Assembly (NCBI GenBank): GCA_028864975.1
Contig: JAGWLG010000029.1
Span: 1-49,971 of the forward strand
Source: Thermoplasmata archaeon
GTDB taxonomy: Archaea > Thermoplasmatota > Thermoplasmata > Lutacidiplasmatales > UBA184
Direction of reading: 5' to 3'
Length of the DNA: 49,971 nt
The translations under genes were made by a program, and so were the position numbers. The first letter of the stretch is position 1, and each line of letters begins with the position of its first letter. Of this stretch, positions 3,758 to 23,050 are shown in pieces. The notes beneath the pieces were generated by a model. The model saw only the letters and a program-made list of their open reading frames with translations. It searched no databases and had not been told where the DNA came from.

Positions 3758-3789
3758 GCCCTGCCAACTGCAGGGGTACCGTCTACGCT

Positions 3790-3889
3790 GCCCATCGACT
3801 TCCCTTCGCCGGTATTACCCGGATCAGGTTCGAGGGGTCGACAGCTCTTCGCTGTCCTCTCAGCCGCATGATGGCTCCCCCAGCGGGGG
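3790..3889 (-). promoter_or_regulatory. TPP (thi-box) riboswitch aptamer
   Basis: The minus strand reads GGGGGAGCC-ATCATGC-GGCTGAGAG-GACAGC(GAAGA)GCTGTC-GACCCCT-CGAACCTGAT-CCGG(GTAATA)CCGG-CGAAGGGAAG, which matches the TPP consensus (CTGAGA, GACCC, ACCTGAT, GGTAAT.CC.GCG.AGGGA). It ends about 35 nt upstream of the thiB ATG. Confidence 0.93.
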
Positions 3890-4008
3890 TTGCACACGGG
3901 TCGAGGGTAATACGCTTGCTGCCGGGTCTTGGAGCGTTTCGCGCGCGTCCGTACGCCTGAGGGAAAGTCGATGGGCTCGGGACAGATGGCCCCCCGTGCT
4001 TCTGAGTA

Positions 4009-6957: not shown

Positions 6958-7814
6958 GACGCTCCGCCCTCCGAGGGCTGTTCCGACCCCGAGGCCGAAG
7001 GAGCGGTCCACGACCTCCCTCCGGCAGGTCGGTAACCCTCCGGGTCGATGGTAACGCTGGTGAAGCCGAGCGCCGTCAACTCAAAGGAGACCTGGAACCG
7101 GAGGGCAGGGTCCTGGAACCGTCCCACCTCCTCGGAACCCACCTCGATGCGGGCGGCGCCCTGGGAGGTCCGCACCCGAACCTGTCGGAACCCCAGCTCG
7201 TGGAGCGCCCGCTCCCCGGCTTCCACACGGGAGAGGAGGGGAGTGGAGATGGGTTCTCCGTGGGCGACGCGGGAGGCGAGGCAGCTGTTCGAAGGGGCGT
7301 CGTGGTTCGGGAGCCCCCAGGCCGCGGCGAGCTCGCGCACCTCCCGCTTGCCCAGCCCCGCCTCGCGGAGCGGGTGGCGGACCTTTCGTTCGTCCATGGC
7401 GCGCATCCCCGGACGATCGTCCGCCGGGTCGTCCGCGTGAAGGCCATCCACGATGACGGCGAACCGTTCCTCTTGCGCGACGGCCAGAAGGAGATCTCCT
7501 TCCTGCGAGCGGCAGAAGTAGCATCGGTCGAGAGGATTCGCGGCGTAGCGGGGGTCCTGCGTCGGGTCGATGCGGACCAAACGGTGCCGGATCCCGACCG
7601 ACCTTGCGACCTCGACGGCACGGTCGAGCTCCTCCTTTGCCACGGCGGGGCCGTGGAGCGTCACGGCCAGCGAGCGACCCGGGGCTGCGCGCTGCGCAGC
7701 GGCGGCCACAACACTGGAGTCAACTCCCCCTGAAAGTGCGACCACGACGGGACCCATGTCCTTCAGCAGAGCTTCCAGGCGGTCGGGGAAAGGGCCGGTC
7801 GGCAGTACGGTCAC
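6954..7814 (-). CDS. larE: PP-loop sulfur transferase of the LarE family
   Basis: PP-loop SGGVDSS, RCYFCR, DDRPGMRA, SNSCLASRV and FRQVRVR are all LarE-family motifs. The start was re-assigned to GTG 7814. Confidence 0.88.
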   Translation of the reverse strand: MTVLPTGPFPDRLEALLKDMGPVVVALSGGVDSSVVAAAAQRAAPGRSLAVTLHGPAVAKEELDRAVEVARSVGIRHRLVRIDPTQDPRYAANPLDRCYFCRSQEGDLLLAVAQEERFAVIVDGLHADDPADDRPGMRAMDERKVRHPLREAGLGKREVRELAAAWGLPNHDAPSNSCLASRVAHGEPISTPLLSRVEAGERALHELGFRQVRVRTSQGAARIEVGSEEVGRFQDPALRFQVSFELTALGFTSVTIDPEGYRPAGGRSWTAPSASGSEQPSEGGAS

Positions 7815-7850
7815 GGGCCACCTGACGGAATAAGGGGCCAAGAGGTTGTC

Positions 7851-10787
7851 GTGCCTGAACGCGAACCCGACCTCGAGAGCAGCCTCGACGACCCACGACT
7901 TCTCATAGTTCCGCTCGGTTCGAGTCCCTTCTGGGTCCCCGTGTCCGAGCCCGCTGCTCCCCTCCCCCCTCAACCTTCGATTTCGTTGCACGCCCGGATC
8001 GCGTCCGTCGCGCGGGGAAGGGGTATCGTCGATCCCACCGAGATCCAGGCCTTGGCCTGGCCCGTGCTGGCCAGGGGAGCCGAAGCTCTCCTGGTGGCCC
8101 CCACGGGCACCGGAAAGACCGAGGCCGCGCTCCTCCCGCTCCTCGGGGACCTCGTCGCCACGCCCGGCCCGCCCGTCTCGATCCTATACATCACTCCGCT
8201 CCGGGCGTTGAACCGCGACCTCGACGGGAGGCTCATGGCGTGGTCGGAAGCGCTCGGGCTACGCGCGGCCGTACGGCATGGGGACACCCCTCAACGCGAA
8301 CGCGTCCGGCAGTCGGCGGCACCTCCCGACGTTCTGGTGACGACGCCCGAGACCCTTCAGCTTCTGCTCGTGGGGAGCCAGCTCCGCAAGGGGATGCAGA
8401 ACCTGCGGGCGGTGATCGTGGACGAGATCCACGAGCTCGCGTCCAACGACCGGGGGGCCCAGTTGGCCGTCTCGCTGGACCGGCTGGACGCCCTGGTGGG
8501 CCACCACGTCCGGAGGATCGGGCTCTCGGCCACGATCGGGAACCCGAAGGAGGTCGCCACCTATCTTTCGCCCCGCACCCCGGTCGAGGTGCTCGTGGCC
8601 CCGGCCTCCAAGGAGTTCTCGGTCACGGTGCGTCCCCCCGCTCCACCCGAGGCGGTCTCGGCCGTTCCGGAGGCGATGCGCAGCGAGCTGAAGGCGGATG
8701 ACGGTCTTCTGGCCGCCCTTCTGGCGCTCGTCGAAGAGGTGCGAGCGCACCGTTCGACACTCATCTTCGTCAATACCCGACCGACCGCAGAATCCCTGGC
8801 CGCCCGCCTGAAACGGCTTGCCGCGGACCTCCCTGTGGCGGTCCATCACGGCTCCCTTTCTCGGGAGGTGCGTGAGGAGACCGAGGAACGCTTCCGCAAG
8901 GGGGAGCTACGCGCCCTCGTCGCGACGAGCTCGCTCGAGCTCGGGATCGACATCGGGGTCGCGGACCACGTGGTGCAGTTCGGCTCGCCGCATCAAGCGT
9001 CGAGGTTGCTCCAACGCATCGGGCGGTCTGGCCACCGAAGAGGGGCCGTCTCTTCCGGGACCGTGATCGCGCTGGACGACGAGGACCTGGAGGAGTCCGT
9101 GGTGCTCGCTCGTCGGGTCCTCTCTCGCGAGGTCGAACCCATCTCCATCCGCCCGCGCAACCGACTGGCGCTCGCCCAGCAGCTGGTCGCCGCCCTCCGG
9201 GCCGAACGAGAGGTCCCAGCGGACCGGGTGCTGTCCACCCTTCTGACCTCGGTCCCGACCCGCGACCTGACCCTGGGGGAGGTCCGTGAGCTCTCCGAGT
9301 TCCTCGAACGCCTGGGCTCCCTGCGTCGCGAGGGTACGAAGTTCCGTGCCGGCCGGGGGACCCTCCAGAGGTTCTACGCGACGCTCTCGCTCATCCCTGA
9401 GGAGAAGACCTACCCGTTGCGGGACCTGGGGTCCCGCAAGGTCATCGGCACCCTCGACGAGCGCTTCGTGGTCACGCAAGTGCTGGCGAACCCCGAGTTC
9501 ACCTTCCTCCTCCATGGGACCACCTGGAGGGTGGTCGAATTCCGAGAGGAGGAACTCCTGGTCGAAGCCGTCAAGGAGATCGGCCAGGAGCCTCGTTGGG
9601 CGGGAGAGGACATCCCGGTCCCGTTCGAAGTGGCCCAAGAGATCGGACGGTTGCGAAGGGAGGGGAGCCCCTCGACCTATCCGATGACGGCGGAGGCGAG
9701 GGGCCGATTGGAGCGGCGGGTCCGAGAGGTCCGGTCGCTCGCGGAGTTCCCCTCGGACCGAACCGTGACCGTCGAGGCGCATGGCCGCATGATGGTGGTC
9801 GGCGCGTGCTTCGGCACCAAGGTCAACGCCACCCTCGCGATGCTCCTCGCCGGTCTCGCGACGTCGAAGTTCGGCGTCCGGTCCGATGTGCTGCTCGTCG
9901 AACCCACCTGGTTCGTGATCGGGCTTCCGACCCTACCCGCCCCGAGCGAAGCCCTGGGGCTCTTCGAGGTCGATCCCGACACGGTGCCCGGACTGCTCGA
10001 CCGGCTCGTCCCGACGGGGATGGAGTACCGTTGGACCTTCACCACCGTCGCGAGGAAGTTCGGGCTCCTCCCTTTGGGCGCCGACGCTCGGCAGCTCCGG
10101 ACGCTGGAGCCGCTCCTGGAGACGAGCGAGGGGACGCCCTTGGGCGAGGAAGCGCTCGAGAAGACCCTGCACGATCGTTACGACGTCGAGCGGGCCCGCG
10201 AGGTCTTCGCGCGGGCGCGTCGAGGAGAGCTGCGGCTCGTGAACGTGCCCTCGCATCCCGGCTCGCTCGGGAGCCGTGTTCTTGAGCGGCTCCGCTGGCA
10301 GCAGCTGGGGGACGTTCCTCCGCCGACCCTTCTCAAGGCGGTGAAGGAGCGCCTGAGGAAGGAGCCCCTGCTCCTGATCTGTGTCCGTTGCGGCTACGAA
10401 CGGACCGTAACGGCGGAGGGATGGAAGGCGGCCGGGGGCTCCGCTTGCCGCGTCTGCAAAGGAGCGTTGTCGGCGATCATGTCGCCCCGGAGGGAGGAGG
10501 AGCTCAAGGTGCTCCGGAAGTACCTCAAGGCCCGGCGCCGGCGAGGCGGGGCCTCGGCGCCACGACCTACGCCCCAGCAACAGAAGCTCATGCAAGCTGC
10601 CTACACGACGGCGGAGCTCCTGAGCTCCTATGGGGAGATGGCCTTGCTCGCATTGGCCGCAAGAGGGGTGGGTCCCGAGACGGCACGCCGTATCCTCCTG
10701 GGGCAGCACCGGGGGGAGGACGCCCTTCTGGGAGACCTGCTAAAGGCCGAGCGCAGCTACGCGCAGACCCGGGCCTTCTGGGACTAG
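7851..10787 (+). CDS. lhr: Lhr-like SF2 DEAD/DEAH helicase (archaeal type, C-terminal Cys4 Zn finger)
   Basis: APTGTGKT, YITPLRALNRD, TTPE, DEIH, GLSAT, HHGSLS, ATSSLELGIDIG and QRIGRSGH motifs, plus C-terminal CVRC...CRVC and an HhH-like GVGPETA segment. Confidence 0.93.
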   Translation: MPEREPDLESSLDDPRLLIVPLGSSPFWVPVSEPAAPLPPQPSISLHARIASVARGRGIVDPTEIQALAWPVLARGAEALLVAPTGTGKTEAALLPLLGDLVATPGPPVSILYITPLRALNRDLDGRLMAWSEALGLRAAVRHGDTPQRERVRQSAAPPDVLVTTPETLQLLLVGSQLRKGMQNLRAVIVDEIHELASNDRGAQLAVSLDRLDALVGHHVRRIGLSATIGNPKEVATYLSPRTPVEVLVAPASKEFSVTVRPPAPPEAVSAVPEAMRSELKADDGLLAALLALVEEVRAHRSTLIFVNTRPTAESLAARLKRLAADLPVAVHHGSLSREVREETEERFRKGELRALVATSSLELGIDIGVADHVVQFGSPHQASRLLQRIGRSGHRRGAVSSGTVIALDDEDLEESVVLARRVLSREVEPISIRPRNRLALAQQLVAALRAEREVPADRVLSTLLTSVPTRDLTLGEVRELSEFLERLGSLRREGTKFRAGRGTLQRFYATLSLIPEEKTYPLRDLGSRKVIGTLDERFVVTQVLANPEFTFLLHGTTWRVVEFREEELLVEAVKEIGQEPRWAGEDIPVPFEVAQEIGRLRREGSPSTYPMTAEARGRLERRVREVRSLAEFPSDRTVTVEAHGRMMVVGACFGTKVNATLAMLLAGLATSKFGVRSDVLLVEPTWFVIGLPTLPAPSEALGLFEVDPDTVPGLLDRLVPTGMEYRWTFTTVARKFGLLPLGADARQLRTLEPLLETSEGTPLGEEALEKTLHDRYDVERAREVFARARRGELRLVNVPSHPGSLGSRVLERLRWQQLGDVPPPTLLKAVKERLRKEPLLLICVRCGYERTVTAEGWKAAGGSACRVCKGALSAIMSPRREEELKVLRKYLKARRRRGGASAPRPTPQQQKLMQAAYTTAELLSSYGEMALLALAARGVGPETARRILLGQHRGEDALLGDLLKAERSYAQTRAFWD

Positions 10788-10865
10788 GGGCTTGTGAAGG
10801 GACCCCGCGACCTTTCGAGCGCTCCGGGTCCGTGCGGCCCGGGGGTCGGACGTGGTCGGCGCCTC

Positions 10866-12299
10866 TCAGAGATGCCAGGTCGGGCCGCCGTACCCTGAAG
10901 GCAAGGGGGGCGGAGTGGGACCTCCGAACGGGTCCGGCCTCGGGGTCGGGGGCCGCCCCTTCTTCTCGGCGAGGTACGCATCGATGGCCTCCGCCGCCTG
11001 GGCGCCCGCCTCCATGGCATAGACGACCGAGGGCCCTCCTGAAGCGAAAACCCCCTCCACGTCGGTCATGTGGTGGGGCCGGCCACCTTCGGGCCAGCCA
11101 TGACGGGAGGGCTGGAGGTTGAGTTCCTTCGGCAACCCCCCCATCTCCGCCTTCTCCCCTGCGGCGATGATGATCGTGTCGCATGCGAGCGTCTCATCGC
11201 TCCCCGGAACCTCCTGCACCGGTCGTTTCCCCTGGGCGTCGGGGGATCCAAGTTGGGTTCGGCGGAGGACGATACCCTCCACGTGGCCCTTTCCGATGAT
11301 CTGGACCGGAGCGCGCTGGTAGAGGAAGTTCACGCCCTCGATGTCCCCTCCCGAACGCTCCTCTTCTCCGGCCGGCATCTCCGATTCGGTGCGGCGATAG
11401 ACCAAGGTCACTTCGCCGGGGTTCGAAACGCGGAGGCTCGACCGCGCGGCATCCATCGCGACGTCGCCCCCTCCGATGACCACGACCTTCCGGTCCCTCC
11501 GGCCGAGAAGACCCTCGGTTCCGACGTTCATCGAGAGCAGGAAAGGCAACGCGTAGAAGACCCCAGGAAGATGCTCGCCTGGGACCCCCAGCTCACGGGG
11601 ATCGGACGCCCCGAGAGCGAGGTAGACCGCGAGGTAGCCCTGGCGAAGGAGGTCCTCTGGGGTGAAATCCCGGCCGGCCTTCTTCTCCATCTGATAGGTG
11701 ATGTCCAGGCCCTGGAACCTCGCAACGTCGGTGGAGAGCTCGTCGCCGGCTAGATGGTACTTCGGGATCGTGTCCACCTGACCTCCGAGGAACTTCTGTT
11801 CCTCGAAGACCGTCACGGAGTACCCCCGAAGGGCGAGGTCCCACGCGGCCATCAGACCTGCCGGACCGCCCCCAACCACCGCCACGCGCTCCCCCTTCGG
11901 GGGGAGCGGAACGTAGACGAGGTTCGCGTTCCCGAGTTCGAGCGCCGCCCGCTTGAGGTGGCGGATGGCGATAGGGGAGCCTCGGCCCCCCTTCACGCAA
12001 TCCTCCTCGCAGTAGTGATAGCAGGTCTTGCACAGGACCGTGCCCAGGGGGTTTTCCTGCAGGACCCGCCGTGCGGCTTCGTCGAACTTCCTTTTCGCGA
12101 TGAGGTCGATGTACCCTCGGCAGTCCTGGGTGATAGGGCAGGCCTGGATGCAGTAGGGCATCGCGCATTGCAAGCACCGTTCGGCCTCGATCACCGCCTC
12201 ACCCTCGGTGTACGGTTCGAGGATCTCCCCGAAGGTGGACTCACGCTCCTGGCGGGTCTCTTCGGGTATCGGGACCCGATCCTGTCGGAAGGCGCACAT
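10866..12299 (-). CDS. FAD/NAD(P)-dependent Fe-S oxidoreductase (GltD/SudA/PreT-like)
   Basis: N-terminal CLQCxxxxCxxxCP and CxxCxxxCExxC clusters, an FAD motif (VAVVGGGPAG) and an NAD(P) motif (VVIGGGDVAMDAAR...YRR). Confidence 0.9.
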   Translation of the reverse strand: MCAFRQDRVPIPEETRQERESTFGEILEPYTEGEAVIEAERCLQCAMPYCIQACPITQDCRGYIDLIAKRKFDEAARRVLQENPLGTVLCKTCYHYCEEDCVKGGRGSPIAIRHLKRAALELGNANLVYVPLPPKGERVAVVGGGPAGLMAAWDLALRGYSVTVFEEQKFLGGQVDTIPKYHLAGDELSTDVARFQGLDITYQMEKKAGRDFTPEDLLRQGYLAVYLALGASDPRELGVPGEHLPGVFYALPFLLSMNVGTEGLLGRRDRKVVVIGGGDVAMDAARSSLRVSNPGEVTLVYRRTESEMPAGEEERSGGDIEGVNFLYQRAPVQIIGKGHVEGIVLRRTQLGSPDAQGKRPVQEVPGSDETLACDTIIIAAGEKAEMGGLPKELNLQPSRHGWPEGGRPHHMTDVEGVFASGGPSVVYAMEAGAQAAEAIDAYLAEKKGRPPTPRPDPFGGPTPPPLPSGYGGPTWHL

Positions 12300-12361
12300 C
12301 GTCCTATCCTGGGAGGAGGGCCTCAGGGTTCCAAGGGCGTCCGTGGCTTGGAGACAAGCTC

Positions 12362-13093
12362 CTACCTCCTTCCGCCCCCGGCCGCAGCACCACGTGCTCG
12401 GGAAGGAGGGGCGGTGGTGGAGGAGGGAGCCGCCCAGAGGCGGTATCCTCCGACGAAGGCGTTCTCGTTGTCACCGCGGCGGGCCCCGGGAGGCAGGGTC
12501 TTGATCCGTTTCACGTTCCCGCCTCCGATGACGACGTCATCGGGCTCCAGAGCCGCCCTCAGGCGCTCCACCACGTCCTCGACAGCCCGACGCCACTTCT
12601 TGTTCCCCAGGCGTTCCCGCCCCCGCTCGCCGACGTAGTCCTCGTACGTCCGCCCCTTCTTGTACGGGAGGTGGGCGAGCTCCATGGGTTCCACGATGCC
12701 GTTGACGATCATGGCGGACCCCAGGCCGGTCCCGAGCCCGAGGAAGAGCATCCGTCCGCCGCGGTAGCTACCCAGCGCCTGCATCGCGGCGTCGTTGACG
12801 AGCTTCACGGGGTGGCGGAAGGCCTTGGCGAAGTCGAGCCCGATCCAACCGGGACCGAGGTTCGCTGGTTCGTGCAAAGGACGGCCATGCAGGACCGGTC
12901 CCGGATATCCGATCGAGACCACGTCGTACGACCACGTTCGGGTGACCTTCTTCACCGCGCTCACCATCTGCGGTCCTGTCATCTCCGGCCCCGAGGGGAT
13001 CTTCACTTCGCCCTTCCGGCCGGTCGCGCGCACCTTGACATGAGTTCCGCCGACATCGAGCACGAGCACCTTGCGTTCTGCGACTTCGTTCAT
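12362..13093 (-). CDS. ROK-family sugar kinase (glucokinase/polyphosphate glucokinase-like)
   Basis: LDVGGTHVK, VNDAAMQALG, LGLGTGLGS and ELAHLPY motifs. The start ATG 13093 overlaps the pgl stop (ATGA). Confidence 0.88.
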   Translation of the reverse strand: MNEVAERKVLVLDVGGTHVKVRATGRKGEVKIPSGPEMTGPQMVSAVKKVTRTWSYDVVSIGYPGPVLHGRPLHEPANLGPGWIGLDFAKAFRHPVKLVNDAAMQALGSYRGGRMLFLGLGTGLGSAMIVNGIVEPMELAHLPYKKGRTYEDYVGERGRERLGNKKWRRAVEDVVERLRAALEPDDVVIGGGNVKRIKTLPPGARRGDNENAFVGGYRLWAAPSSTTAPPSRARGAAAGGGRR

Positions 13094-13872
13094 TCCTGAC
13101 CTCCGCGTCCTCCTTTTCGTTGGAGAGCTAGGGGAAGCCCGGTAGCCGCCTCGCGGTCCAGGTAGAAGCGCGTAGGGGCGCGGGCGGCGATGAGGCTCGC
13201 GGGGAAGCGGAAGGACCCTCGGGGCAAGCTGCGATAGATCCCGCGCACGGCCTTGGCCTTCCCCTCGCCCGAGGTCAGGAAACAGACCTCCTTCGAAGAG
13301 GTCAACGCAGGGAGCGTCAGAGTCGCCCGCGGCAGACGTGGAGGCTCCGGCGACCTGCGGACCAGGGCGACCAACTTCTCCTGTTCGGTGAGCTGCGGGA
13401 AGGACGGGAAGAGGGACGCGGTGTGCCCGTCCTCCCCGATCCCCAGGAGCACGAGGTCGAACCAAGGGGGCGGCCCTTCGAGCGTGGAAGCAAGACGATT
13501 GGCATAGTTCTCCACGGCCAAGGAGGGAGGGCGCATCTCTCCGCGCACCCGCACGACCTGGGAAGTCGGCACCCTGACCCGGGAGAGGAAGCTCTCCCGG
13601 CACATCCGGAAGTTGCTGTTGGGGTCCTTGGGGGGCACGAGCCGGTCATCGCCGAAGTAGACCCAGGTCCGCCGCCACGGGAATGTGGGCTGCTCCTCTG
13701 CGAGCTCTCGATAGAGTTCCCGGGGAGTGTTCCCTCCCGCGAGAACGAACCGGAAGCGGCCACGTGCCTTGACGGACCGGCGGGCGAGCGCCGTGACGTG
13801 TCGGGCGAGGCGATGCGAGACCTCGGAGAGGTCCCCACCTACGACCCACCGGACAGACCGCTCTCGTCCCAT
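13090..13872 (-). CDS. pgl: 6-phosphogluconolactonase
   Basis: LAGGNTP, YFGDDRLVP, SNFRM and FDLVLLGIGEDGHTASLFP (DevB/Pgl family). This is the C-terminal part of the long track ORF 13090..15081; the true start is ATG 13872. Confidence 0.93.
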   Translation of the reverse strand: MGRERSVRWVVGGDLSEVSHRLARHVTALARRSVKARGRFRFVLAGGNTPRELYRELAEEQPTFPWRRTWVYFGDDRLVPPKDPNSNFRMCRESFLSRVRVPTSQVVRVRGEMRPPSLAVENYANRLASTLEGPPPWFDLVLLGIGEDGHTASLFPSFPQLTEQEKLVALVRRSPEPPRLPRATLTLPALTSSKEVCFLTSGEGKAKAVRGIYRSLPRGSFRFPASLIAARAPTRFYLDREAATGLPLALQRKGGRGGQE

Positions 13873-15338
13873 CGATGCCCCATCTCCTCGAGCAGCTGGT
13901 CGGCCTCCGCGGGTCCCATCGTTCCGGCGGCGTAGGGACGGACCGGGGGTCGGTTCGCCAGTAGCGGGTCGTAGAGGGTCCACGAGGCCTCGACCTCGTC
14001 CGCGCGAACGAAGTGCGTCGGGTCCCCCCGAAGCACGTCCATGAGGAGCATCTCGTAGCCGTCCGAGAGCGATCCGAAGACGTCGGAGTACCGGAAGCTC
14101 ATCCGGTGCGTCTGGGTCCTCATCTCCCGCCCGGGGACCTTGACCTCGAAGCAGAGCTCGAACCCCTCGTCCGGCTGCAGGAGGATGGTCAGGCGGTCCG
14201 GGCTCATCTCGTAGGCGGCCGCACGATGGAAGAAGGCGACCGGAGGGGCGCGGAAGGTGACCACCACCCGGGTCGACTTCGCGGGCAGCCGCTTCCCCGT
14301 CCTGAGATAGAAAGGGACCCCTTGCCACCTCCAGTTGGCGATCCGAAGGCGCAGGGCCACGAACGTCTCGACGTCCGAGGTGGGGCTGACCCCCGGCTCC
14401 TGTCGGTACCCCGGGACCGACTGTCCCCCGATCCCCCCGGCCTGGTACTGGCCGAAGACCACATCGCCCGGGGCCAGGGGCGCGATGGACCTTAGCAGCT
14501 TCACCTTCTCGTTGCGGATCGCGTCGGCGTCGAGCGACCCCGGGGGCTCCATCGCGACCAGGCTCAGCACCTGGGTCGTGTGGTTCTGGACCATGTCCCG
14601 GAGCGCGCCCGAGCTCTCGTAGTAGCCGGCCCGGTCCTCGACCCCCAACGACTCGGCCACGGTGATCTGGACGTCCTCGACGTGCTCCCGGTTCCAGTCG
14701 GATTCGATGAAGGCGTTCGCGAAGCGGAGCACCAGCAGGTTCTGGACCGTCTCCTTCCCGAGGTAGTGGTCGATCCGGTAGACCTGTTGCTCTTCGAAGT
14801 AGCGATGAAGGAGCGCGTTCAACTGCTGAGCGCTCGCGAGGTCGCGCCCGAAGGGCTTCTCCACGACCACGCGGGTCCACCCCGGTCCGTGCGCGAGACC
14901 CGCGTCGCCGAGCCCCTGGATCGTGGACGCGAAGGCCTGGAGCGGGAGCGCGAGGTAGAAGAGGCGGTCCCCCGCGAGCCCGAGCTCCTTCTCGACCTGG
15001 GGGATCCGCGCGGAGAGGGCCGCGTAGCCTGCGCTCCCACCTGCCGCTAGGGACTGGAACCGGATCGTTCTGGCACACCATTGCTCGAGGTTGGCCCGGT
15101 CCTGGGCTCCGTCGGTCCCCGCCCCGGCCGCGAGGAGCGCGTCGAGGGCGACCTGCTGGAACTTCGCATCGTCCAGAGGAGCACGGGCCACGGCCAGGAT
15201 GCCGCTGCCGGCGGGGATGTCGCCTCGAGCGTGGAAATGGTAGAGCGCCGGTAGGAGCTTGCGGCGCATCAGGTCCCCGGTGCCTCCCAGCACGACGAAG
15301 AGGTGGGGCGTCGTGGGGGGGGACGCCGGGGCGGCCAA
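13839..15338 (-). CDS. zwf: Glucose-6-phosphate 1-dehydrogenase (classical bacterial Zwf)
   Basis: GGTGDLMRRKLLPAL, VVEKPFG, RIDHYLGKE, ESLGVEDRAGYY, RDMVQNH and RWQGVPFYLRTGKRL. Confidence 0.97.
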   Translation of the reverse strand: MAAPASPPTTPHLFVVLGGTGDLMRRKLLPALYHFHARGDIPAGSGILAVARAPLDDAKFQQVALDALLAAGAGTDGAQDRANLEQWCARTIRFQSLAAGGSAGYAALSARIPQVEKELGLAGDRLFYLALPLQAFASTIQGLGDAGLAHGPGWTRVVVEKPFGRDLASAQQLNALLHRYFEEQQVYRIDHYLGKETVQNLLVLRFANAFIESDWNREHVEDVQITVAESLGVEDRAGYYESSGALRDMVQNHTTQVLSLVAMEPPGSLDADAIRNEKVKLLRSIAPLAPGDVVFGQYQAGGIGGQSVPGYRQEPGVSPTSDVETFVALRLRIANWRWQGVPFYLRTGKRLPAKSTRVVVTFRAPPVAFFHRAAAYEMSPDRLTILLQPDEGFELCFEVKVPGREMRTQTHRMSFRYSDVFGSLSDGYEMLLMDVLRGDPTHFVRADEVEASWTLYDPLLANRPPVRPYAAGTMGPAEADQLLEEMGHRWDESGLSGGS

Positions 15339-15340
15339 GC

Positions 15341-16249
15341 TCAGCCCTCCTTGCCCAGGACGTGGCCCCCGAACTTGAGCCGCATCATCGCGAGGAGGCG
15401 TTCCGCGAACGGGTTCTCCTCACGCGAGCGGATACGGTTCTGGAGCGCGATCCCGATGACCGGGGCTGGGACGTTCAAGTCGAGCGCCTCCTGGAGCGTC
15501 CACCTCCCCTCGCCCGAGTCCCACACCCACGGCTTCACGCCCTCGAGCTTGGGGTTCTCCGCGAGCGCCTGGGCTGTGAGGTCCAGCAACCATGAGCGGA
15601 CCACGCTACCGTAGCGCCAGATCTCCGAGACCTGGTGGAGATCGAGCGCGAAGTCCTGCTTCGCTCCGAGCACCGCGAACCCCTCGGCGTAGGCTTCCAT
15701 GAGCCCGTACTCGATGCCGTTGTGGACCATCTTCACGAAGTGTCCCGAGGCAACGGGACCCACGCGGCCCCATCCCAGGGCCGGGCCGGGTGCGAGCGTC
15801 TCGAGCGCCGGTCGGACCCGCTCGACATCCGCGGGGTCCCCCCCCACCATCATGCTGTACCCTTCGGTCAGCCCCCAGATGCCCCCGCTCGTCCCCACGT
15901 CGACGAAACCCCCTCCCCAGGCCTTCACGGAGGCCGCGCGGCGGAGCGTGTCCTTGTAGTAGGAGTTGCCACCGTCCACGACGAGGTCACCTGGGGCGAG
16001 CAGCCCCTTCAGGCTCTCCAAGGTCTGGTCGACCGGGGCCCCCGAAGGGACCATCAGCCAGACGACACGGGGCTTCGCAAGCTTCTGGACGAGGTCCTCG
16101 AGGGAGCTTGCTCCCTTCGCCCCCTGGTCCACCACGCTTTGCACCGTCGCGGGGGTCCGGGCGTATCCGACCACCTCGTGCCCGCCGCGGACCAGCCGCA
16201 CGGTCATGTTCGCGCCCATCTTGCCCAGTCCGATCATTCCCAGTTGCAT
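15341..16249 (-). CDS. gnd: 6-phosphogluconate dehydrogenase, short-chain decarboxylating type
   Basis: MQLGMIGLGKMG, WLMVPSG, VDGGNS, DVGTSGG, GHFVKMVHNGIEYG, VVRSWLL and SGEGRWT; about 302 aa, which is the short form. Confidence 0.95.
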   Translation of the reverse strand: MQLGMIGLGKMGANMTVRLVRGGHEVVGYARTPATVQSVVDQGAKGASSLEDLVQKLAKPRVVWLMVPSGAPVDQTLESLKGLLAPGDLVVDGGNSYYKDTLRRAASVKAWGGGFVDVGTSGGIWGLTEGYSMMVGGDPADVERVRPALETLAPGPALGWGRVGPVASGHFVKMVHNGIEYGLMEAYAEGFAVLGAKQDFALDLHQVSEIWRYGSVVRSWLLDLTAQALAENPKLEGVKPWVWDSGEGRWTLQEALDLNVPAPVIGIALQNRIRSREENPFAERLLAMMRLKFGGHVLGKEG

Positions 16250-16284
16250 GTTCGACTTCCTCCGTTCTTCCTCAGGGTTGACCA

Positions 16285-18003
16285 TCACGTTGAAGCGGGT
16301 CCCGAGAGGGCCCCGACCTCGCGAGCGGGCGCCTCCGGTAGCTTCGTCAGGACGGACCGCAGGCGTTCGAGCCCTTCGAGCGCGTTCGCGCCCAGGTCCA
16401 AGCGCAGAACCCTACGGTGGCGCTGGAGCAGCACCTGGGCATCGCCCAGGGACTGCGCCCGAATGATCTCGCCGAAGCTGAACTTCTCCCCGGGGACCGG
16501 AAGGTCGACCGAGGGGCGGTCGAGGAGCTGAAGAACGACCACCGACGGGGGCCCCCCTTTGTGGAGCTGGCCTGTGGAGTGCAGGAAGCGAGGGCCGAAC
16601 CCCGACGTCGTCGCGACACGGGTGCGGCGGAGCAACTGCGTGCGCAGCCCCTCCAACGCCTCCTCGGCCGCGGCCGTCGTGTCCAGGTAGGCTTGGAGCG
16701 TCACATAGTCGCCCGGGCGGATGCCCGCAAGCCACCCCCTGAGCGAGCCCTCGAGCTCCGGCCCGTCCTTCACGTCGATGCGAGGCACAGGCTCGGCCCC
16801 CGCGGGGCCGCTCCCACGGGCCATCGCCTGCCGGGCGAGCTCCTTGGCGACCTCGACATCGGGCTGGTCGAAGGGGTCGATCCCCAGGACCGAGCCGCTC
16901 ATGGCGACCGCGAACTCCCATCGGAAGAACTCCCCACCAAGGTCGAGCGGGTCGCCGTAGGTGAGGCGTAGGACGGGGTGCCCGTCGCGTTCCAGCGACT
17001 CGGTGTGCGCCCGCAACGCTTCGTCCTGCCTTCCCTGCTGCTGGAGCTCGACGAAGAACCTGTCCTTGCCATAGAGGGACGAGGCCACCAGAGCCTCTCC
17101 CGCCACGGGGACGATCCCCGTGCCGAGCTTTCCGGTGCTCTCGGCGATGAGCTGCTCTACCCAGATCGGGAACGCTCGCAACGCGCCCCCCACATAGAGC
17201 GTGAGCTTGTCCTGCCCCGCGCGCGCGAGTTCCCCCATGAGCGCACCCAGGTGCAGGGCGGGGTTCGATGGGGGGTCCACCGAGGGACCGCACGCGCGGG
17301 CCATGGAGGCCGCCCGGTCGAGGAGGCCCCCCACGTCGGCGCCCAGCAGGGCTGCGGGGACCAGCCCGAAGAACGTGAGCGCGCTGTAACGTCCCCCCAC
17401 CGTCGACAGCGGGTGGAAGGTCCGACGGAATCCCTTCTGGCGAGCGAGGCGGTCGAGCGCCGATCCTTCATCGGAGATCGCGACGAAGTGGGACCCAGGG
17501 GGGATCCCCGTCTTCTCCATCTGCCCCCAGAAGAACTCATGAAAGACGTTCGGCTCGAGCGTCGTACCGGACTTGCTGGAGACGAGGAAGAGCGTGCGAG
17601 GGAGCCGGGCGGGGTCCGCGAGGGCCCTGACCGCGGCGGGATGCGTGCTGTCCAGCACGCAGAGCTCGGGGAACCCGGGGGCGTGTCCGAAGACCTGACG
17701 CAGGACGCTCGGGGCGAGGCTCGAGCCCCCCATGCCCAGGAGCACGACGCGGTCCAGGCCCTCCGACCGGACCTCCGAGGCGAACTTCTGGAGGTCCGGA
17801 AGGCTCGCTCGCATCATCTGCGGGAGGTCGAGCCAGCCAAGACGGTCGGGCACCTCGGCAGGGGGCGCCTTCGGCCAAAGCTGCGGGTCCTTCTTCCAGG
17901 CCTGGGCAGAAGCGTGAGCGGAGGCCCACGAGGCCTCGCGCTCGCGGACGGCCTTGGCCGCGGCGGGGGGGAGGCGGACAGGGGACCCAGGGTCGGTGCT
18001 CAT
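16285..18003 (-). CDS. pgi: Glucose-6-phosphate isomerase resembling the PGI half of bacterial Tal-Pgi fusions
   Basis: LGWLDLP, LLGMGGSSLAP, LDSTHP, SSKSGTTLEP, VGGRYSAL, EQLIAESTGK, DPFDQPDVE and GPRFLHSTGQLHKGG. The start ATG 18003 overlaps the tkt stop. Confidence 0.9.
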   Translation of the reverse strand: MSTDPGSPVRLPPAAAKAVREREASWASAHASAQAWKKDPQLWPKAPPAEVPDRLGWLDLPQMMRASLPDLQKFASEVRSEGLDRVVLLGMGGSSLAPSVLRQVFGHAPGFPELCVLDSTHPAAVRALADPARLPRTLFLVSSKSGTTLEPNVFHEFFWGQMEKTGIPPGSHFVAISDEGSALDRLARQKGFRRTFHPLSTVGGRYSALTFFGLVPAALLGADVGGLLDRAASMARACGPSVDPPSNPALHLGALMGELARAGQDKLTLYVGGALRAFPIWVEQLIAESTGKLGTGIVPVAGEALVASSLYGKDRFFVELQQQGRQDEALRAHTESLERDGHPVLRLTYGDPLDLGGEFFRWEFAVAMSGSVLGIDPFDQPDVEVAKELARQAMARGSGPAGAEPVPRIDVKDGPELEGSLRGWLAGIRPGDYVTLQAYLDTTAAAEEALEGLRTQLLRRTRVATTSGFGPRFLHSTGQLHKGGPPSVVVLQLLDRPSVDLPVPGEKFSFGEIIRAQSLGDAQVLLQRHRRVLRLDLGANALEGLERLRSVLTKLPEAPAREVGALSGPAST

Positions 18004-20015
18004 GCGCTTCCTCCTGCCCCGCTGGGGGTGAGGACCGAGCGCACCGCATCGACGACATGCTCGGGGGTCAGGCCGAGCTTCTGCTGGACGATCGGCCCTG
18101 GAGCGGACGCCCCGAAGCGGTCGACCCCGACGGAAGCCCCGTGAAGGCCGACGTAGCGACCCCAGCCGATCGTGACCCCCGCTTCCACCGAAACCCTGGG
18201 AAGAGCGTCGGGGAGGACCTGGGAGCGGTACTCCGCAGGTTGGGCGTCGAAGAGCTCCCACGACGGCATCGAGACCACCGAGACCCGCGTGCCCTCCTGG
18301 AGGAGGCGGCGCTGGGCCTCGAGGGCGAGATGGACCTCGGAGCCGGTCGCCAGCAGGAGCGCCTGCGCGCGTCCTCCTTCGGCGGGCGAGAGGACGTACG
18401 CCCCCCGCTCGACCCCCTGGTCCACCTGCGTGGGAGGCTGGGGGAGCACCGGGAGCTTCTGACGGGTGAGGATGAGCATGGTGGGCTTCCGACGCGACAC
18501 CACGATCTTCCAGGCGGCCCGGGTCTCGTTGGCGTCGGCCGGGCGGAGCACGAGGAGACCGGGGATGGCGCGGAGCGAGAGCAGGTGCTCGACCGGCTCG
18601 TGGGTCGGCCCGTCCTCCCCGACGGCAATGCTGTCGTGGGTCAAGACCAGGACCATCGGGACCTGCATCAGCGCGGAGAGGCGGATCGCCCCTCGCGCGT
18701 AGTCCGAGAAGACCAGGAACGTCGCCCCGTAGGGCAGCATCCCGCCATGGAGGGCGAGCCCGTTCACCATGGCGACCATCGCATGTTCGCGCACGCCGAA
18801 ATGGAGGTTCCTTCCGCCGGGGTTGCCCCGGCCGTAGTTCGAGTCCGAGGTGAGGAGCGTCTTGGTCGAGGGCGCGAGGTCCGCGGACCCGCCCAGGATC
18901 TCGGGGAAGCGCTTCGCGAGGGCGTTGAGCATGGTGCCGGAGGCATCCCGCGTCGCGAGGGGACCATCTTTCGGCTGAAAGACGGGGAGACCGTCCGCCC
19001 AGCCCACGGGGAGCTCTCCCTTCATCCGTCGCTCGAGCTCCGGGGCGAGCGCCGGCTCCTGGGACTTCCAGCGTCCATAGAGGGCCAGCCACTCCTGGCG
19101 TCGCAGGGCCCCTCGGGCGCGAGACTCTTCGAAGTGCGCGCGCGCTTCCGGGGGGACGAGGAACGGAGGCTCGACGGGCCACCCCAGGCGCTGCTTCGTC
19201 TCCCGGGTCCCCTCGGGACCGAGGGGTTCCCCGTGTGCTTCGTGAGAGTCCTGGACGGGGCTCCCGTAGCCGATGTGGGTCCGCACCGAAATGAGGGAAG
19301 GGCGGTCGACTGCTTCCCGTGCGCCGCGGATCGCGCTCTCGATCTCGGCGAGGTCGTTGCCGTCCTCGACCGAGCGGACGTCCCAGCCGTAGGCGCGGAA
19401 GCGGGTCGGAACGCTCTCGGTGAACTCGACCCGCGCGTCCCCTTCGAGCGAGACCTTGTTGTTGTCGTAGAGGTAGACCAGCTTGCCCAGACCGAGGGTG
19501 GCCGCGAGCGAGGCGGCTTCGGAGGTGATCCCCTCCATCAGGTCGCCGTCGGAGACGATGCCGTAGGTGAAATGGTCGAACACCGGAAGGCCGGGTCGGT
19601 TGTAGACGGCGGCGAGGTGGTGCTCGGCGATGGCCATGCCGAGCCCCATCGCGAACCCTTGACCCAACGGGCCGGTGGTCGCCTCGACCCCGGGGGTGAC
19701 GCCGTGCTCGGGGTGGCCCGGGGTGATGCTCCCCCACTCGCGGAAGTGCTGGAGGTCGTCGAGCGTGACGGGGTACCCCGTGCAGTGGAGGAGCGCGTAG
19801 AGCAGCGCGGACCCGTGGCCGGGGGAGAGGACGAACCGGTCGCGGTCCCACCAACCCGGGTCGGCAGGGTCATGCTTGAGGAATCGGTCGAAGAGCACGT
19901 ACGCCATCGGGGCGGCCCCGAGCGGGAGCCCGGGGTGGCCCGAGCGGGCCTTCTCGACCGCATCGACGGCAAGGAACCTGAGCGTATTGACACAGAGTTC
20001 GTCCGTGCTCGTCAT
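18000..20015 (-). CDS. tkt: Transketolase (single-chain bacterial type)
   Basis: SGHPG, DRDRFVLSPGH, TPGHPE, TTGPLGQG, SDGDLMEG (ThDP motif), GVREHAM and THDSIAVGEDGPTHEP. The start was re-assigned to ATG 20015. Confidence 0.97.
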   Translation of the reverse strand: MTSTDELCVNTLRFLAVDAVEKARSGHPGLPLGAAPMAYVLFDRFLKHDPADPGWWDRDRFVLSPGHGSALLYALLHCTGYPVTLDDLQHFREWGSITPGHPEHGVTPGVEATTGPLGQGFAMGLGMAIAEHHLAAVYNRPGLPVFDHFTYGIVSDGDLMEGITSEAASLAATLGLGKLVYLYDNNKVSLEGDARVEFTESVPTRFRAYGWDVRSVEDGNDLAEIESAIRGAREAVDRPSLISVRTHIGYGSPVQDSHEAHGEPLGPEGTRETKQRLGWPVEPPFLVPPEARAHFEESRARGALRRQEWLALYGRWKSQEPALAPELERRMKGELPVGWADGLPVFQPKDGPLATRDASGTMLNALAKRFPEILGGSADLAPSTKTLLTSDSNYGRGNPGGRNLHFGVREHAMVAMVNGLALHGGMLPYGATFLVFSDYARGAIRLSALMQVPMVLVLTHDSIAVGEDGPTHEPVEHLLSLRAIPGLLVLRPADANETRAAWKIVVSRRKPTMLILTRQKLPVLPQPPTQVDQGVERGAYVLSPAEGGRAQALLLATGSEVHLALEAQRRLLQEGTRVSVVSMPSWELFDAQPAEYRSQVLPDALPRVSVEAGVTIGWGRYVGLHGASVGVDRFGASAPGPIVQQKLGLTPEHVVDAVRSVLTPSGAGGSA

Positions 20016-20327
20016 CCGTTCTCCGTGAGACCTTCGGAGCTCGCGCCTCGGCGCGAGCGACGGTCGGCCACCGTCCACGCGGCACGAGGGGGTCCCGATC
20101 GACCGGAAGCCCGAACGGCTCCACCCACTTAATGGCGTGTTTCGTACGCGCGCAAAAGGACACTCCGTTCGTGCCAGCGACCGCGCCAAGCCTTCTCGGG
20201 GCGGCTTCCTCCGAGTAGGACTTCGCGTGCCCTGTCGACACCACCAGGGCAGCGCTAGGGTAGGCCCCTTTGCCCAAGATCTCGCATAGGATAAGTTGGG
20301 GCGCAACTCTTACGCGCCAGGGCGGAT

Positions 20328-20822
20328 GTGCCGGCCGTGCACCCACTTCGGACCCTGACCCGGGACCTCTCGCTCTTCCGACAGGGGCTCACGATCCTCC
20401 ATCAGGTGGGTCCCCACGGACTAGGGGAGATGGTCCGAATGGCCGAGTTCCTCGAGCGCTCGATCTATCAGGAGGGAAGCTTGCGTGCGACCCGCGAGGG
20501 GTTCAGCTTCCGGCTCTTGAACCCCCCCATGCGCATGGGAGCCTTCCACTGGGCGACCTTGAGCGTCGACCAGCGCCCCCTTCCGCCCGAGGACTGCTCG
20601 GTCTCCGAACCGCAGGGTCCGAGCCTTCGCCCCTTCCCGTCCTTGAGCCGACAGGAGCCGCTCCACCTTCGCCCCGGCGAAGGGGCCTCGTTCGCCGCTC
20701 GCCTGCCTGGACTGGTCCCGGGTCACCGTCACACGGTCCAGCTCAACCTCCGGAACGTGGCGATCCCCCCCATGGTCTGGGTCCGGTTCACGGACGAGCT
20801 GCGGAGAGAGGAGGAAGGTTGA
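20328..20822 (+). CDS. Hypothetical protein, probable small beta-sandwich domain
   Basis: 164-aa ORF with natural composition. Its TGA stop overlaps the TTG start of the next gene (TTGA). Confidence 0.65.
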   Translation: MPAVHPLRTLTRDLSLFRQGLTILHQVGPHGLGEMVRMAEFLERSIYQEGSLRATREGFSFRLLNPPMRMGAFHWATLSVDQRPLPPEDCSVSEPQGPSLRPFPSLSRQEPLHLRPGEGASFAARLPGLVPGHRHTVQLNLRNVAIPPMVWVRFTDELRREEEG

Positions 20823-23050
20823 GCGCCATCCCCACGGCGCCGAACCCCAAGGACCCTGATTGGGAGGCTCCGCTCCTAGAGACCTCGGAGCCCCGACCGG
20901 ACCTTCCCGTCCTCTTGAGCGGGCACCGGTCGGCCGCGATCCTCTCCGCCGCAGGGGAGATGCAACTGCCCTGGGAGACCCGCGGCGCCCGGATCGAGTG
21001 GGGGGGAGCCTACGCTCAGGGGGTCCGGCTCACGGGACCGTGGACGCTCCAGGTCGGAAGCGCGGGGGGCGCTCCCCAGCCTCTGAGCACGTTCCTCCGT
21101 TCCCTGAGCGTGCGAAGGACGGAGGTCACCTCGACCTACCAGGGCCCGGGATGGACCGCGCGTCAGGAGGTCGTGGTCCCCCACGACGAGCCCGCCGTGA
21201 CCCGCCGCCTTCTCCTCACGGGGATGGCCGAGACCGGCCTCGACCTCTCGATCGGCATGCGGGTCGAACCGTTCCTGCTCCCCGTCCTCATGGAAGGACT
21301 GCGCCCCAGAGTCTACGCGCTGCGGGGGTCGCCGACCGGGTTCGCGCTTTCGGCCGAGGGATACGCGCTGGAACTCCTCTCTTCCGAAGCGCCTACGTCG
21401 CTGTCCGTCGAGGGGCGGGCGCTCTCCGTGGAGCCTTCGACTCAGCCGGTGCCGGCCGTGGACCTCGTCTGGAACTTGCACCTCGACCCGGCGGAGATGG
21501 TCCGGCTCTCCTGGGTGGTCTGGGGGGGGATGGAGAAGCTCGTGCGCATGGAGCCCGACCATGGGGCGCGATTGCTCTCCTCTTCGGTCGCGTGGCGCGA
21601 CGAGCGCAGGTCGAGCCAGGCCCTGTGGTGGAACGAGCGGCCGCGCTTCCGCTTCCCGCAGGACCCTCTGCTGGAGGAGGGGGCGCTCCTGGCCACGGGG
21701 GCGCTCGAAGCGCTCACGCACGCTCCCGAGCCGGGGATGGTGGGCATGGTCGCCGGATACCCGTGGTACTACGCGCTCTGGTTCCGCGATATCGCCTGGA
21801 TGCTCCCGGCGGTCCTCTGGCTGGGGGACTTCGACTGGGCGCGGGCCACCTTGGGGACGGCCTTCAACTTCCAGAGCCGCGCGCATGTCCCCGTCCTGGG
21901 GGCCGAACCGGGAGAGGTCCCGATGCAGGTCAGCCCGGGCCCGATCTTCCTCTACGGCACTTCGGACACGACGCTCCACTTTCCCGCGCTCGCCTACCGC
22001 TTCCTGCAACATGCCGGGGTGGAGCGTGCCTCCTTCCTCCGACCCCTCCTGCCCCACGTCGCGGGCTGTCTGGCCTGGGCGGACCGAAAGGTGAGCCCGC
22101 AGACGGGGCTCTTCACGAACGGCGGGGAGATCGCCGAGATGGCGGCGGCCGCCCAGCAGGGGAAGGTCCAGTGCGGCATCGATGCCCTCGACACGACGAT
22201 CTGGGACTCGACCGACCGTCGCGCTCACGCCGTCGACCTGCAGGTCCTTCATGTCCGCGCCCTGCGCGCAGCGACGGGTCTCGCCGGGGCGCTGGGAGCG
22301 TTCGACGGGGCTCCCTCGGGGGGAGAGGAGAGGGCCCAGGCGATCCAACAGAAGGTCCTGAACAGCTACCGATGGCCCTCCGAGGACTATCTCGTCGACA
22401 CCCTGACCCCGGAGGGGGAACCGGTCAACCGACTACGACCGAACGCGCTCCTTGCTGTGATGGACGGATGGCTTCCGAGGGAGCAGGCCCAGGCCATGAT
22501 CCGCCGGGCGGCCTGTGAGGACCTGACGACCCCGTGGGGGGTGCGGACCCTGTCCCGCAAGGACCCGAACTTCGATCCCGAGGCCTACCATGATGGGCAG
22601 GTCTGGACCATCGCCACGGACTGGGCCGCTCACGCGGCGTTGCGTGCGCGTTGCCCCGAGGAAGGCCTCGCCTACCTCCACACCGTGACGGGCCTGTTGA
22701 AGAGCGAGCATGGGCTCGCGAACGAGTGCTATCACGGGCTCCGTGCGCAGCCTTTCGACAGCTGTTTCCTGCTCGGGCTCAGCGTAGGCCCGTTCCTGAC
22801 CGCGCTCTTCGAAGGGCTTTGGGGCCTCTCCTTCGTCCCGGGGCAAGGAGCCCCCGTGCTGAGGGTGGACCCCGCCTTCCCCTCGACGTGGCAAGAGGCC
22901 TCGCTCGAGAACCTTCGTGTGGGAGACACGATCCTCGACCTTCACTGGACCCCTGGCAAGCTGAAGGTCGAACAACGCTCAGGGCCGGCCCTCGAGGTCC
23001 AGGGCGGCGAGGGGCTCGAGGTCCTTCCGGTCTCGACGGGGTCTCCTTAG
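20819..23050 (+). CDS. Amylo-alpha-1,6-glucosidase / glycogen-debranching-like (alpha/alpha)6 glycoside hydrolase
   Basis: MVAGYPWY..WFRD, a D..IWD segment and WGVRTLS...YHDGQVWT...W are motifs of GDE_C-like domains. The start was re-assigned to TTG 20819. Confidence 0.8.
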   Translation: MSAIPTAPNPKDPDWEAPLLETSEPRPDLPVLLSGHRSAAILSAAGEMQLPWETRGARIEWGGAYAQGVRLTGPWTLQVGSAGGAPQPLSTFLRSLSVRRTEVTSTYQGPGWTARQEVVVPHDEPAVTRRLLLTGMAETGLDLSIGMRVEPFLLPVLMEGLRPRVYALRGSPTGFALSAEGYALELLSSEAPTSLSVEGRALSVEPSTQPVPAVDLVWNLHLDPAEMVRLSWVVWGGMEKLVRMEPDHGARLLSSSVAWRDERRSSQALWWNERPRFRFPQDPLLEEGALLATGALEALTHAPEPGMVGMVAGYPWYYALWFRDIAWMLPAVLWLGDFDWARATLGTAFNFQSRAHVPVLGAEPGEVPMQVSPGPIFLYGTSDTTLHFPALAYRFLQHAGVERASFLRPLLPHVAGCLAWADRKVSPQTGLFTNGGEIAEMAAAAQQGKVQCGIDALDTTIWDSTDRRAHAVDLQVLHVRALRAATGLAGALGAFDGAPSGGEERAQAIQQKVLNSYRWPSEDYLVDTLTPEGEPVNRLRPNALLAVMDGWLPREQAQAMIRRAACEDLTTPWGVRTLSRKDPNFDPEAYHDGQVWTIATDWAAHAALRARCPEEGLAYLHTVTGLLKSEHGLANECYHGLRAQPFDSCFLLGLSVGPFLTALFEGLWGLSFVPGQGAPVLRVDPAFPSTWQEASLENLRVGDTILDLHWTPGKLKVEQRSGPALEVQGGEGLEVLPVSTGSP

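Follow-up and report, generated by a model that had tools for sequence, protein, structure and literature searches.

The stretch of DNA analyzed here (the window) comprises 49,971 nucleotides from a Thermoplasmata archaeon and represents the entire contig C102 (GenBank JAGWLG010000029.1) of a metagenome-assembled genome (MAG; assembly GCA_028864975.1), which consists of 3.6 Mb in 124 contigs and has an estimated completeness of ~89.6% and an estimated contamination of 1.9%. Its minus strand contains, at positions 12362-20015, six co-oriented genes that code for enzymes of a bacterial-type oxidative pentose phosphate pathway and for a small kinase. The analyses described below make it very probable that this operon is a module of bacterial origin, predicted to be working, that has long been fixed in one family of the Thermoplasmata, most likely the Lutacidiplasmatales.

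Genes were called by a codon-usage model trained on the genome, and their products were named by Pfam and NCBIfam. The first gene of the operon, tkt (18000-20015), codes for a single-chain bacterial-type transketolase of 671 aa with the Pfam domains Transketolase_N, Transket_pyr and Transketolase_C (TIGR00232, 822 bits with a cut-off of 682). It is followed by pgi (16285-18003), which codes for a glucose-6-phosphate isomerase of 572 aa (NF007080, 622 bits; Pfam PGI, 45.8 bits), and by gnd (15341-16285), for a short-form decarboxylating 6-phosphogluconate dehydrogenase of 314 aa (NF007161, 430 bits with a cut-off of 271; TIGR00872, 356 bits with a cut-off of 297). The next gene, zwf (13839-15338), begins with TTG and encodes a classical glucose-6-phosphate dehydrogenase of 499 aa composed of the G6PD_N (PF00479) and G6PD_C (PF02781) domains (TIGR00871, 551 bits with a cut-off of 401). 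The operon ends with pgl (13090-13872), which encodes a DevB-type 6-phosphogluconolactonase of 260 aa (TIGR01198, 190 bits with a cut-off of 124; Pfam Glucosamine_iso, 216 bits), and with a gene for a small ROK-family kinase of 243 aa (12362-13093; Pfam ROK, 28.1 bits with a cut-off of 22.9). The identities of Tkt, Gnd, Zwf and Pgl are therefore backed by equivalog-level scores of hidden Markov models above their cut-offs.

The six genes are tightly packed: tkt and pgi overlap by 4 nt (ATGA), pgi and gnd by 1 nt, zwf and pgl by 34 nt, and pgl and the kinase gene by 4 nt, with a gap of 2 nt between gnd and zwf. GGAG-type motifs precede most of the starts, including a GGAG 6 nt before the ATG of tkt. 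Zwf keeps the motifs GxxGDL (at residue 21), EKPFG (at 160) and RIDHYLGKE (at 188), which are invariant in 12 sequences of the family, and its closest solved structure is 9emm (445 bits). An earlier interpretation made from the nucleotide letters alone (the sequence-only reading) had described six contiguous genes with overlapping or nearly abutting starts and stops and intact motifs, and this description is confirmed by the scores, junctions and Zwf motifs. Its label for pgi holds for the isomerase domain, although the protein aligns with NF007080, a model of bifunctional transaldolase/glucose-6-phosphate isomerase (Tal/PGI), only at positions 386-946 of the 949 of the model and below its cut-off of 712; relatives encode a fused Tal-Pgi, of which only the PGI half is present here, and transaldolase is not in the operon.

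Because contig C102 carries few domain-specific markers, linkage of the operon to an archaeal 16S gene was sought in relatives. In genome G018, the zwf operon (at 739 kb) and an archaeal 16S gene (at 350 kb) lie on one 991-kb contig (C5), and in G127 zwf (at 411 kb) and an archaeal 16S gene (at 676 kb) are both on contig C6. The MAG itself contains a 16S gene (on contig C124) that reaches 1488 bits with the archaeal model versus 1095 with the bacterial one, and an aEF-2 of 1112 bits, detected with a model that, among 14 control genomes, matches only the four archaeal ones. Its GC content is 0.678 in the window, ranging from 0.65 to 0.71 along it and from 0.64 to 0.71 across the contigs of the MAG, and both the GC content of the operon and that of its third codon positions (GC3) match the genome. 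Positions 11000-21500 are covered at ≥99% identity and at an even depth of 5-10x by Logan contigs, which stem from four samples of mine drainage and from a separate study of soil, and single contigs span both the 12.3-kb and the 20.1-kb junctions (records 10 and 15 of X2, record 17 of X5, and records 26 and 32 of X6). Spikes of depth at 14.5-14.9 kb and 15.6-15.9 kb coincide with conserved segments of zwf and gnd; they were rejected as a signal of copy number and are read as contigs of other organisms piling up on these segments. The archaeal assignment, on which the sequence-only reading had made the interest of the operon depend, is thus borne out by the 16S gene and aEF-2 of the MAG and by the linkage of zwf to 16S genes in G018 and G127, and the bacterial or chimeric contig that it had considered is contradicted by the bridging of both junctions at this identity and depth.

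A tblastn search of the window proteins against 14 loci from relatives (L013-L026), which belong to six genera of the family, found the operon at all fourteen, although only partially at the two that lie on short contigs, with identities from ~37% (Pgl) to 84% (kinase) and of 59-71% for Tkt. Zwf (PF02781) is present in 37 of 59 other genomes of the family and in none of the 341 genomes of 34 other families of the class, and the same contrast holds for Gnd (PF00393; 17 of 23 family genomes versus 0 of 177 others in the class) and for the small ROK kinase (14 of 23 versus 0 of 177). Six family genomes lack zwf, gnd and the kinase gene alike, which indicates that the genes of the module are mostly retained or lost together. 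These tallies include two genomes flagged as unpublished (G120 and G228), without which the counts become 35/57 for zwf, 16/22 for gnd and 13/22 for the kinase, leaving the conclusions unaffected. In the whole phylum, only two full Zwf matches (G582 and G460) and one fragment of 31 bits were found outside the family. Both full matches come from low-GC genomes and are 38-40% identical, one grouping with Pseudomonadota and the other lying on a 2.8-kb contig; given their low GC content, their identity and their position elsewhere in the tree, they were rejected as sharers of the same acquisition and are read as unrelated events or contaminants. No archaeal control genome matched PF02781. The sequence-only reading had named zwf operons common and vertically inherited in Thermoplasmata as an outcome contrary to it: the acquisition is indeed old and family-wide and not specific to this organism, with no Zwf in the 341 genomes from the rest of the class.

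The relationship of these proteins to their bacterial homologs was analyzed with a Zwf scan that used one genome per species and covered 600 stretches chosen by Zwf similarity, from which at least one archaeal and at least 79 bacterial loci were obtained. Trees of Zwf were built with FastTree (132 rows) and with a quick IQ-TREE run (LG+C20 PMSF with SH-aLRT support, 47 rows), and those of Gnd, Pgi and Tkt with FastTree only. In the Zwf trees, the archaeal sequences form one clade (support 99) inside a clade with 100% support that also contains Salinibacteraceae, Acidimicrobiia, Nitrospiraceae, Bryobacterales and Gemmatimonadales. The archaeal Gnd (96) and Pgi (97) sequences are each monophyletic, and the Pgi of Salinivenus is the direct sister of the archaeal Pgi clade (98). 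Of the phylogenies that the sequence-only reading had proposed, those of Zwf and Gnd nest the archaeal clade within bacteria, and the clade of Tkt is more weakly supported (88). When 1.84 billion cluster representatives were searched without a profile, none was closer to Zwf than 55% identity over the full length, and neither the sampled bacterial loci nor the 150 top-ranking representatives included a bacterial operon more than 80% identical. A transfer in the direction from bacteria to archaea, which would have entered the ancestor of the family a single time, is supported by these analyses.

The closest bacterial layout is found on a contig of Salinivenus sp. (JAZKTD010000056, locus L033), which has the same order, tkt, a fused tal-pgi, gnd and zwf, and whose products are 56 (Tkt), 55 (Tal), 49 (Pgi), 63 (Gnd) and 54% (Zwf) identical. 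Among named bacterial matches, those of Salinivenus rank first or near the top for Tal, Pgi, Gnd and Zwf, whereas for Tkt a protein from Caldilineales reaches 60%. The order is similar in Dormibacterota (L034), Nitrolancea (L056), L066, Actinomycetota (L080) and Binatus (L094), and the layout tal-pgi-gnd-zwf-(pgl) recurs in Dormibacterota, Chloroflexota, Thermomicrobiota, Acidobacteriota, Actinomycetota and Binatota. This gene order, shared with Salinivenus and with other phyla, was considered decisive for a transfer en bloc. The bacterial type of the order, claimed by the sequence-only reading, is borne out by the tkt-tal/pgi-gnd-zwf arrangement of the Salinivenus contig; the horizontal transfer of a whole operon, which it had also proposed, is upheld as a transfer by this order and by the Zwf, Gnd and Pgi clades within bacterial diversity, but not as a block of six genes, because the kinase has a separate history (see below). 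Compared with the bacterial operons, that of the window has lost the Tal domain (tkt overlaps the 572-aa pgi), lacks a HAD gene, has a ROK kinase gene appended and resides in an archaeal host.

Haloarchaea use Azf, an unrelated short-chain dehydrogenase, in place of Zwf. The system of Haloferax volcanii (Azf and GndA) has the same overall chemistry, and its 6-phosphogluconate dehydrogenase shares the Pfam family of the window enzyme (PF00393 matches the Haloferax control), whereas the window has a classical Zwf and a DevB-type Pgl. Both of these enzymes are still usually described as missing from Archaea, a description to which an intact bacterial-type operon distributed across a family is a useful documented exception.

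The relatives indicate how the operon of the window could have reached its present form. Locus L016 (4991-7753) encodes a fusion of TAL_FSA and PGI domains of 920 aa, and this fused Tal-Pgi, followed by a gene for a HAD-family hydrolase, is found in genera g7 and g6 and in parts of g4 and g3; the bifunctional polypeptide is present in L014, L016, L018, L019 and L025. No Tal match was found in the window or in three other genomes of its genus, and the domain is also missing in several other lineages; the HAD gene that lies between pgi and gnd is absent from the window operon. The genus of the window has lost both the transaldolase half of the fused protein and the HAD gene, an observation that appears to be new. 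A further step of reduction is seen in L020 (G010:C82), where no tal-pgi remains between tkt (11776-13770) and gnd (10744-11652), which are separated by a gap of 124 nt. In L025 (G018:C5:729600-749500), the zwf match (~9300-10752) is split into residues 5-152 and 147-491 in different frames and the Tal match begins only at residue 79, so that this operon may be decaying or may contain frameshift errors of the assembly.

The kinase is ~60% identical to genes annotated as 'ROK family protein' on large plasmids of Rhizobiaceae, Pantoea and Deinococcus, and it adjoins pgl and zwf in 11 of 14 loci of the family. On plasmid pMM593 of Martelella mediterranea (GH15 glucosidase, gnd, zwf, ROK) and on plasmid P1 of Deinococcus gobiensis (zwf, ROK, GH15), a ROK protein 58-61% identical is encoded directly downstream of zwf and near a glucan-hydrolyzing enzyme. 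The window likewise has, divergent from the operon, a gene for an amylo-alpha-1,6-glucosidase-like glycoside hydrolase of 743 aa (20819-23050, plus strand; Pfam GDE_C, 65 bits, with MGH1-like_GH and Glyco_hydro_65C), which is preceded by an open reading frame (ORF) of 164 aa (20328-20822, plus strand); two genomes of the genus (L015 and L017) have both of them next to the operon as well. However, the Zwf proteins of Martelella and Deinococcus are only 39% identical and fall outside the clade that contains the archaeal Zwf, so that only the kinase is closely shared. Bacterial tal/pgi operons lack this kinase, with a 32% match in L073 as the only exception. An arrival of the kinase together with the rest of the operon was rejected, given that the bacterial tal/pgi-gnd-zwf operons lack it and that the Zwf of its bacterial partners is distant; the kinase has a separate bacterial origin, which also appears to be new. 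That it repeatedly follows zwf and neighbors a glucan hydrolase argues for a role in glucose phosphorylation, and it is probably a glucokinase that would supply glucose-6-phosphate, with the GDE-like hydrolase as a possible supplier of glucose from a storage glucan.

In the pathway proposed by homology, the ROK-family kinase would phosphorylate glucose, possibly freed from storage glucan by the neighboring GDE-like hydrolase; Zwf would oxidize the glucose-6-phosphate to 6-phosphogluconolactone, Pgl would hydrolyze the lactone, and the short-form Gnd would decarboxylate the resulting 6-phosphogluconate to ribulose-5-phosphate, with the two oxidative steps yielding two NAD(P)H per hexose. Transketolase and a transaldolase encoded elsewhere would return the pentoses to fructose-6-phosphate and triose phosphate, and Pgi would close the cycle to glucose-6-phosphate. 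A native archaeal-type cluster for the non-oxidative part of the pathway (G000:C48:68440-70870), present in the MAG alongside the acquired single-chain tkt, contains a gene for a short Fsa-type transaldolase beside that for the N-terminal half of a split transketolase. A hexulose-6-phosphate synthase (G000:C115:55570-56181, minus strand; TIGR03128, 226 bits with a cut-off of 200) is also encoded, together with a gene similar to 6-phospho-3-hexuloisomerase (PHI) on C81 that scores just below the cut-off. The synthase match lies in a frame of 460 aa, about twice the length of the model, which may be a fusion. With the split transketolase, the short transaldolase and the hexulose-6-phosphate synthase all retained as native enzymes, a persistence that appears to be a new detail, the acquired pathway is an addition and not the sole route to pentoses; the idea of the sequence-only reading that the operon 'gave' this lineage a pentose route is not borne out. 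Redundancy with these native enzymes is a plausible reason why the Tal domain was lost repeatedly.

Some observations weigh against parts of this interpretation. The sister group of the archaeal clade is weakly supported (81-88), and no donor phylum emerges from the 600 stretches chosen by Zwf similarity. The kinase reaches only 67.7 bits with the model of polyphosphate glucokinase (NF045942, cut-off 250) and 29.8 with NF045551 (cut-off 500); the general Pfam ROK model is the only one whose cut-off it passes, and among solved structures it matches 3lm2, an uncharacterized 'putative kinase', with 312 bits versus 42 bits for polyphosphate/ATP glucomannokinase. The membership of the MAG in Lutacidiplasmatales is likely, although it is deduced indirectly from GC content, habitat, Ni-SOD and the distribution of zwf. 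Inheritance within the family appears not to have been purely vertical. An aEF-2 tree, used as a proxy of the species tree (a single marker from loci L116-L130, rooted with two sister families), splits the family into g4, g5 and g6 on one side and g1, g3 and g7 on the other, with the operon in both halves; G016 (g4) groups with g7 in all four operon trees and G018 (g6) does so in the three trees that include it, whereas aEF-2 places both with g5 and G021. In addition, G021 and G016 share a genus code, yet the operon lacks Tal and the HAD gene in G021 and has both in G016. At least one exchange of the operon within the family, again an apparently new detail, is likely, although this reading is tentative because the species proxy is a single marker.

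The history that these analyses support begins with a bacterial tkt-tal/pgi-(HAD)-gnd-zwf-pgl operon that entered the ancestor of the family once, with the kinase recruited from a different, zwf-linked family of bacterial genes. Descent was then mostly vertical, with some losses of the whole operon and at least one likely exchange within the family, and the parts redundant with native archaeal enzymes have eroded. A more far-reaching and clearly tentative proposal, which we hold to have somewhat less than an even chance of being right, is that the operon was remodeled around the enzymes of its host, through repeated loss of the Tal domain, loss of the HAD gene, the joining of the ROK kinase as a dedicated glucose kinase (possibly polyphosphate-dependent) of a module leading from storage glucan to NADPH, and the swapping of whole operons between genera. 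If true, the family would offer a natural series in which to study how an operon of central metabolism is domesticated after moving across domains.

Different explanations of these data can be considered. A bacterial contig mis-binned into an archaeal MAG, or a chimeric join at ~12.3 kb and 20.1 kb, would agree with the scarcity of archaea-specific markers in the window, with the bacterial type of its uvrB, ABC transporter and IS110 transposase, and with the fact that, outside the family, the closest named homologs of every operon gene are bacterial. It is nonetheless scarcely credible, since the operon shares long contigs with archaeal 16S genes in G018 and G127, occurs in fourteen independent assemblies from six genera, is bridged evenly at both junctions in other samples and in a second study, has the same genes at its flanks in further species of the genus, and has the GC content (0.678) of a MAG with an estimated contamination of only 1.9%; mis-binning and chimerism are excluded for practical purposes. 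Hardly more probable is a recent acquisition by this organism or genus from a soil bacterium, which could be argued from a gene order identical to that of bacterial operons and from the IS110 transposase elsewhere on the contig: the nearest bacterial proteins are only 49-63% identical, whereas identities within the family are 55-78%, with a single clade for each gene, the operon resembles the genome in GC and GC3, and both deep halves of the family carry it. It is also very unlikely that classical Zwf was ancestral in early Thermoplasmatota and lost almost everywhere, or that the transfer went from archaea to bacteria such as Salinibacteraceae. The direct sister position of the Salinivenus Pgi (98) and the presence of Salinibacteraceae among the closest relatives for Zwf and Gnd could be so explained, but Zwf is found in none of the 341 genomes of the 34 other families of the class, the rest of the phylum has only the two unrelated low-GC matches (one of them grouping with Pseudomonadota), the archaeal clade lies within a set of sequences from at least five bacterial phyla, and the same layout occurs in Dormibacterota, Chloroflexota, Acidobacteriota, Actinomycetota and Binatota.

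A last alternative concerns the function of the operon, namely that the module is mainly catabolic and serves an NADH-yielding oxidation of glucose that feeds aerobic respiration, instead of the supply of NADPH and pentoses. The short-form Gnd exceeds the cut-off of TIGR00872, named NAD(+)-dependent by NCBI, other routes to pentoses have been kept, and the order has been described as aerobic and heterotrophic (PMC9287336). On the other hand, NF007161, named NADP-dependent, scores above TIGR00872 for this protein, which has the sequence 'YARTP' without an acidic residue at the end of beta-2. Zwf keeps an invariant Arg52 (after strand beta-2) and Lys27, which we take to match the 2'-phosphate-binding residues of NADP-using enzymes. 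A mainly catabolic role is accordingly regarded as unlikely.

The gain of zwf and gnd at the ancestor of Lutacidiplasmatales, excluding other Thermoplasmatota, has been reported previously (Sheridan et al. 2022, PMC9287336, supplementary file 1), so the core fact is already in print. The supplement mentions zwf and gnd only, in one sentence, and the pathway table of that study is without zwf, pgl and gnd. The operon as such goes undescribed there, as do pgl, the kinase, the tkt of bacterial type, the fused Tal-Pgi with its erosion and the closest relatives among bacteria. The linkage to 16S genes, the extent of the operon, the closest bacterial layout, the erosion of Tal-Pgi, the separate origin of the kinase and the probable exchange within the family are modest refinements. 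Candidatus Lutacidiplasmatales were described as aerobic heterotrophs from acid soil and mine drainage, with a GC content of ~69%, Ni-SOD and uvr genes (PMC9287336), and the MAG matches these traits in its GC content, its habitat (the stretch occurs in mine-drainage and soil metagenomes), its uvrB, the restriction of zwf and gnd to its family within the class, and its Ni-SOD (Sod_Ni, 145 bits, a model matched by none of the 14 control genomes). Among the data sets listed as containing positions 11800-20600, none was an RNA run. The operon helps to account for the aerobic life on sugars that has been proposed for these archaea of acid soils. Elsewhere in the domain, zwf, devB and gnd have been included in a metabolic reconstruction of Woesearchaeota (PMC11606122).

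The divergent intergenic region upstream of tkt (20016-20327) consists of 312 nt and is the presumed promoter, although no convincing TATA/BRE element was seen by reading this GC-rich region. At the other end, 62 nt downstream of the kinase gene, lies a minus-strand gene (10866-12299) for a GltD/SudA-like NAD(P)H-dependent iron-sulfur flavoprotein of 477 aa (NF009410, 319 bits; Fer4_20 and Pyr_redox_2), which occupies the same position in all three other genomes of the genus. A thiamine pyrophosphate (TPP) riboswitch (RF00059, 70.9 bits with a gathering score of 54.3) is located at 3784-3891 on the minus strand, upstream of the genes of a thiamine-type ABC transporter (2537-3643, 815-2434 and 1-828, minus strand) that encode a substrate-binding protein, a fused double permease and an ATPase; an archaeal riboswitch-controlled uptake operon thus shares the contig with a TPP-dependent transketolase.

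A bacterial-type UvrB (995 bits) is encoded at 4906-7011 and a LarE-like sulfur transferase at 6954-7973, both on the minus strand, and an Lhr-like DEXH helicase of 933 aa at 7986-10787 (plus strand). A protein of 401 aa (36878-38083, plus strand) contains only the double-psi barrel domains CDC48_N and CDC48_2, with no AAA ATPase domain detected in it. An ORF of 1892 aa (25404-31082, plus strand) with the Ig-like domains Big_3_5, PKD and Big_13 probably codes for a giant surface protein, although minus-strand ORFs within it (26006-27499 and 29126-29407) are also flagged by a simple GC3 filter and make this gene call uncertain. A gene for a PIN-domain toxin and a small upstream partner ORF (38098-38541 and 38547-38765, minus strand) are likely to form a toxin-antitoxin pair, and the IS110-family transposase is encoded at 43007-44041 on the plus strand.

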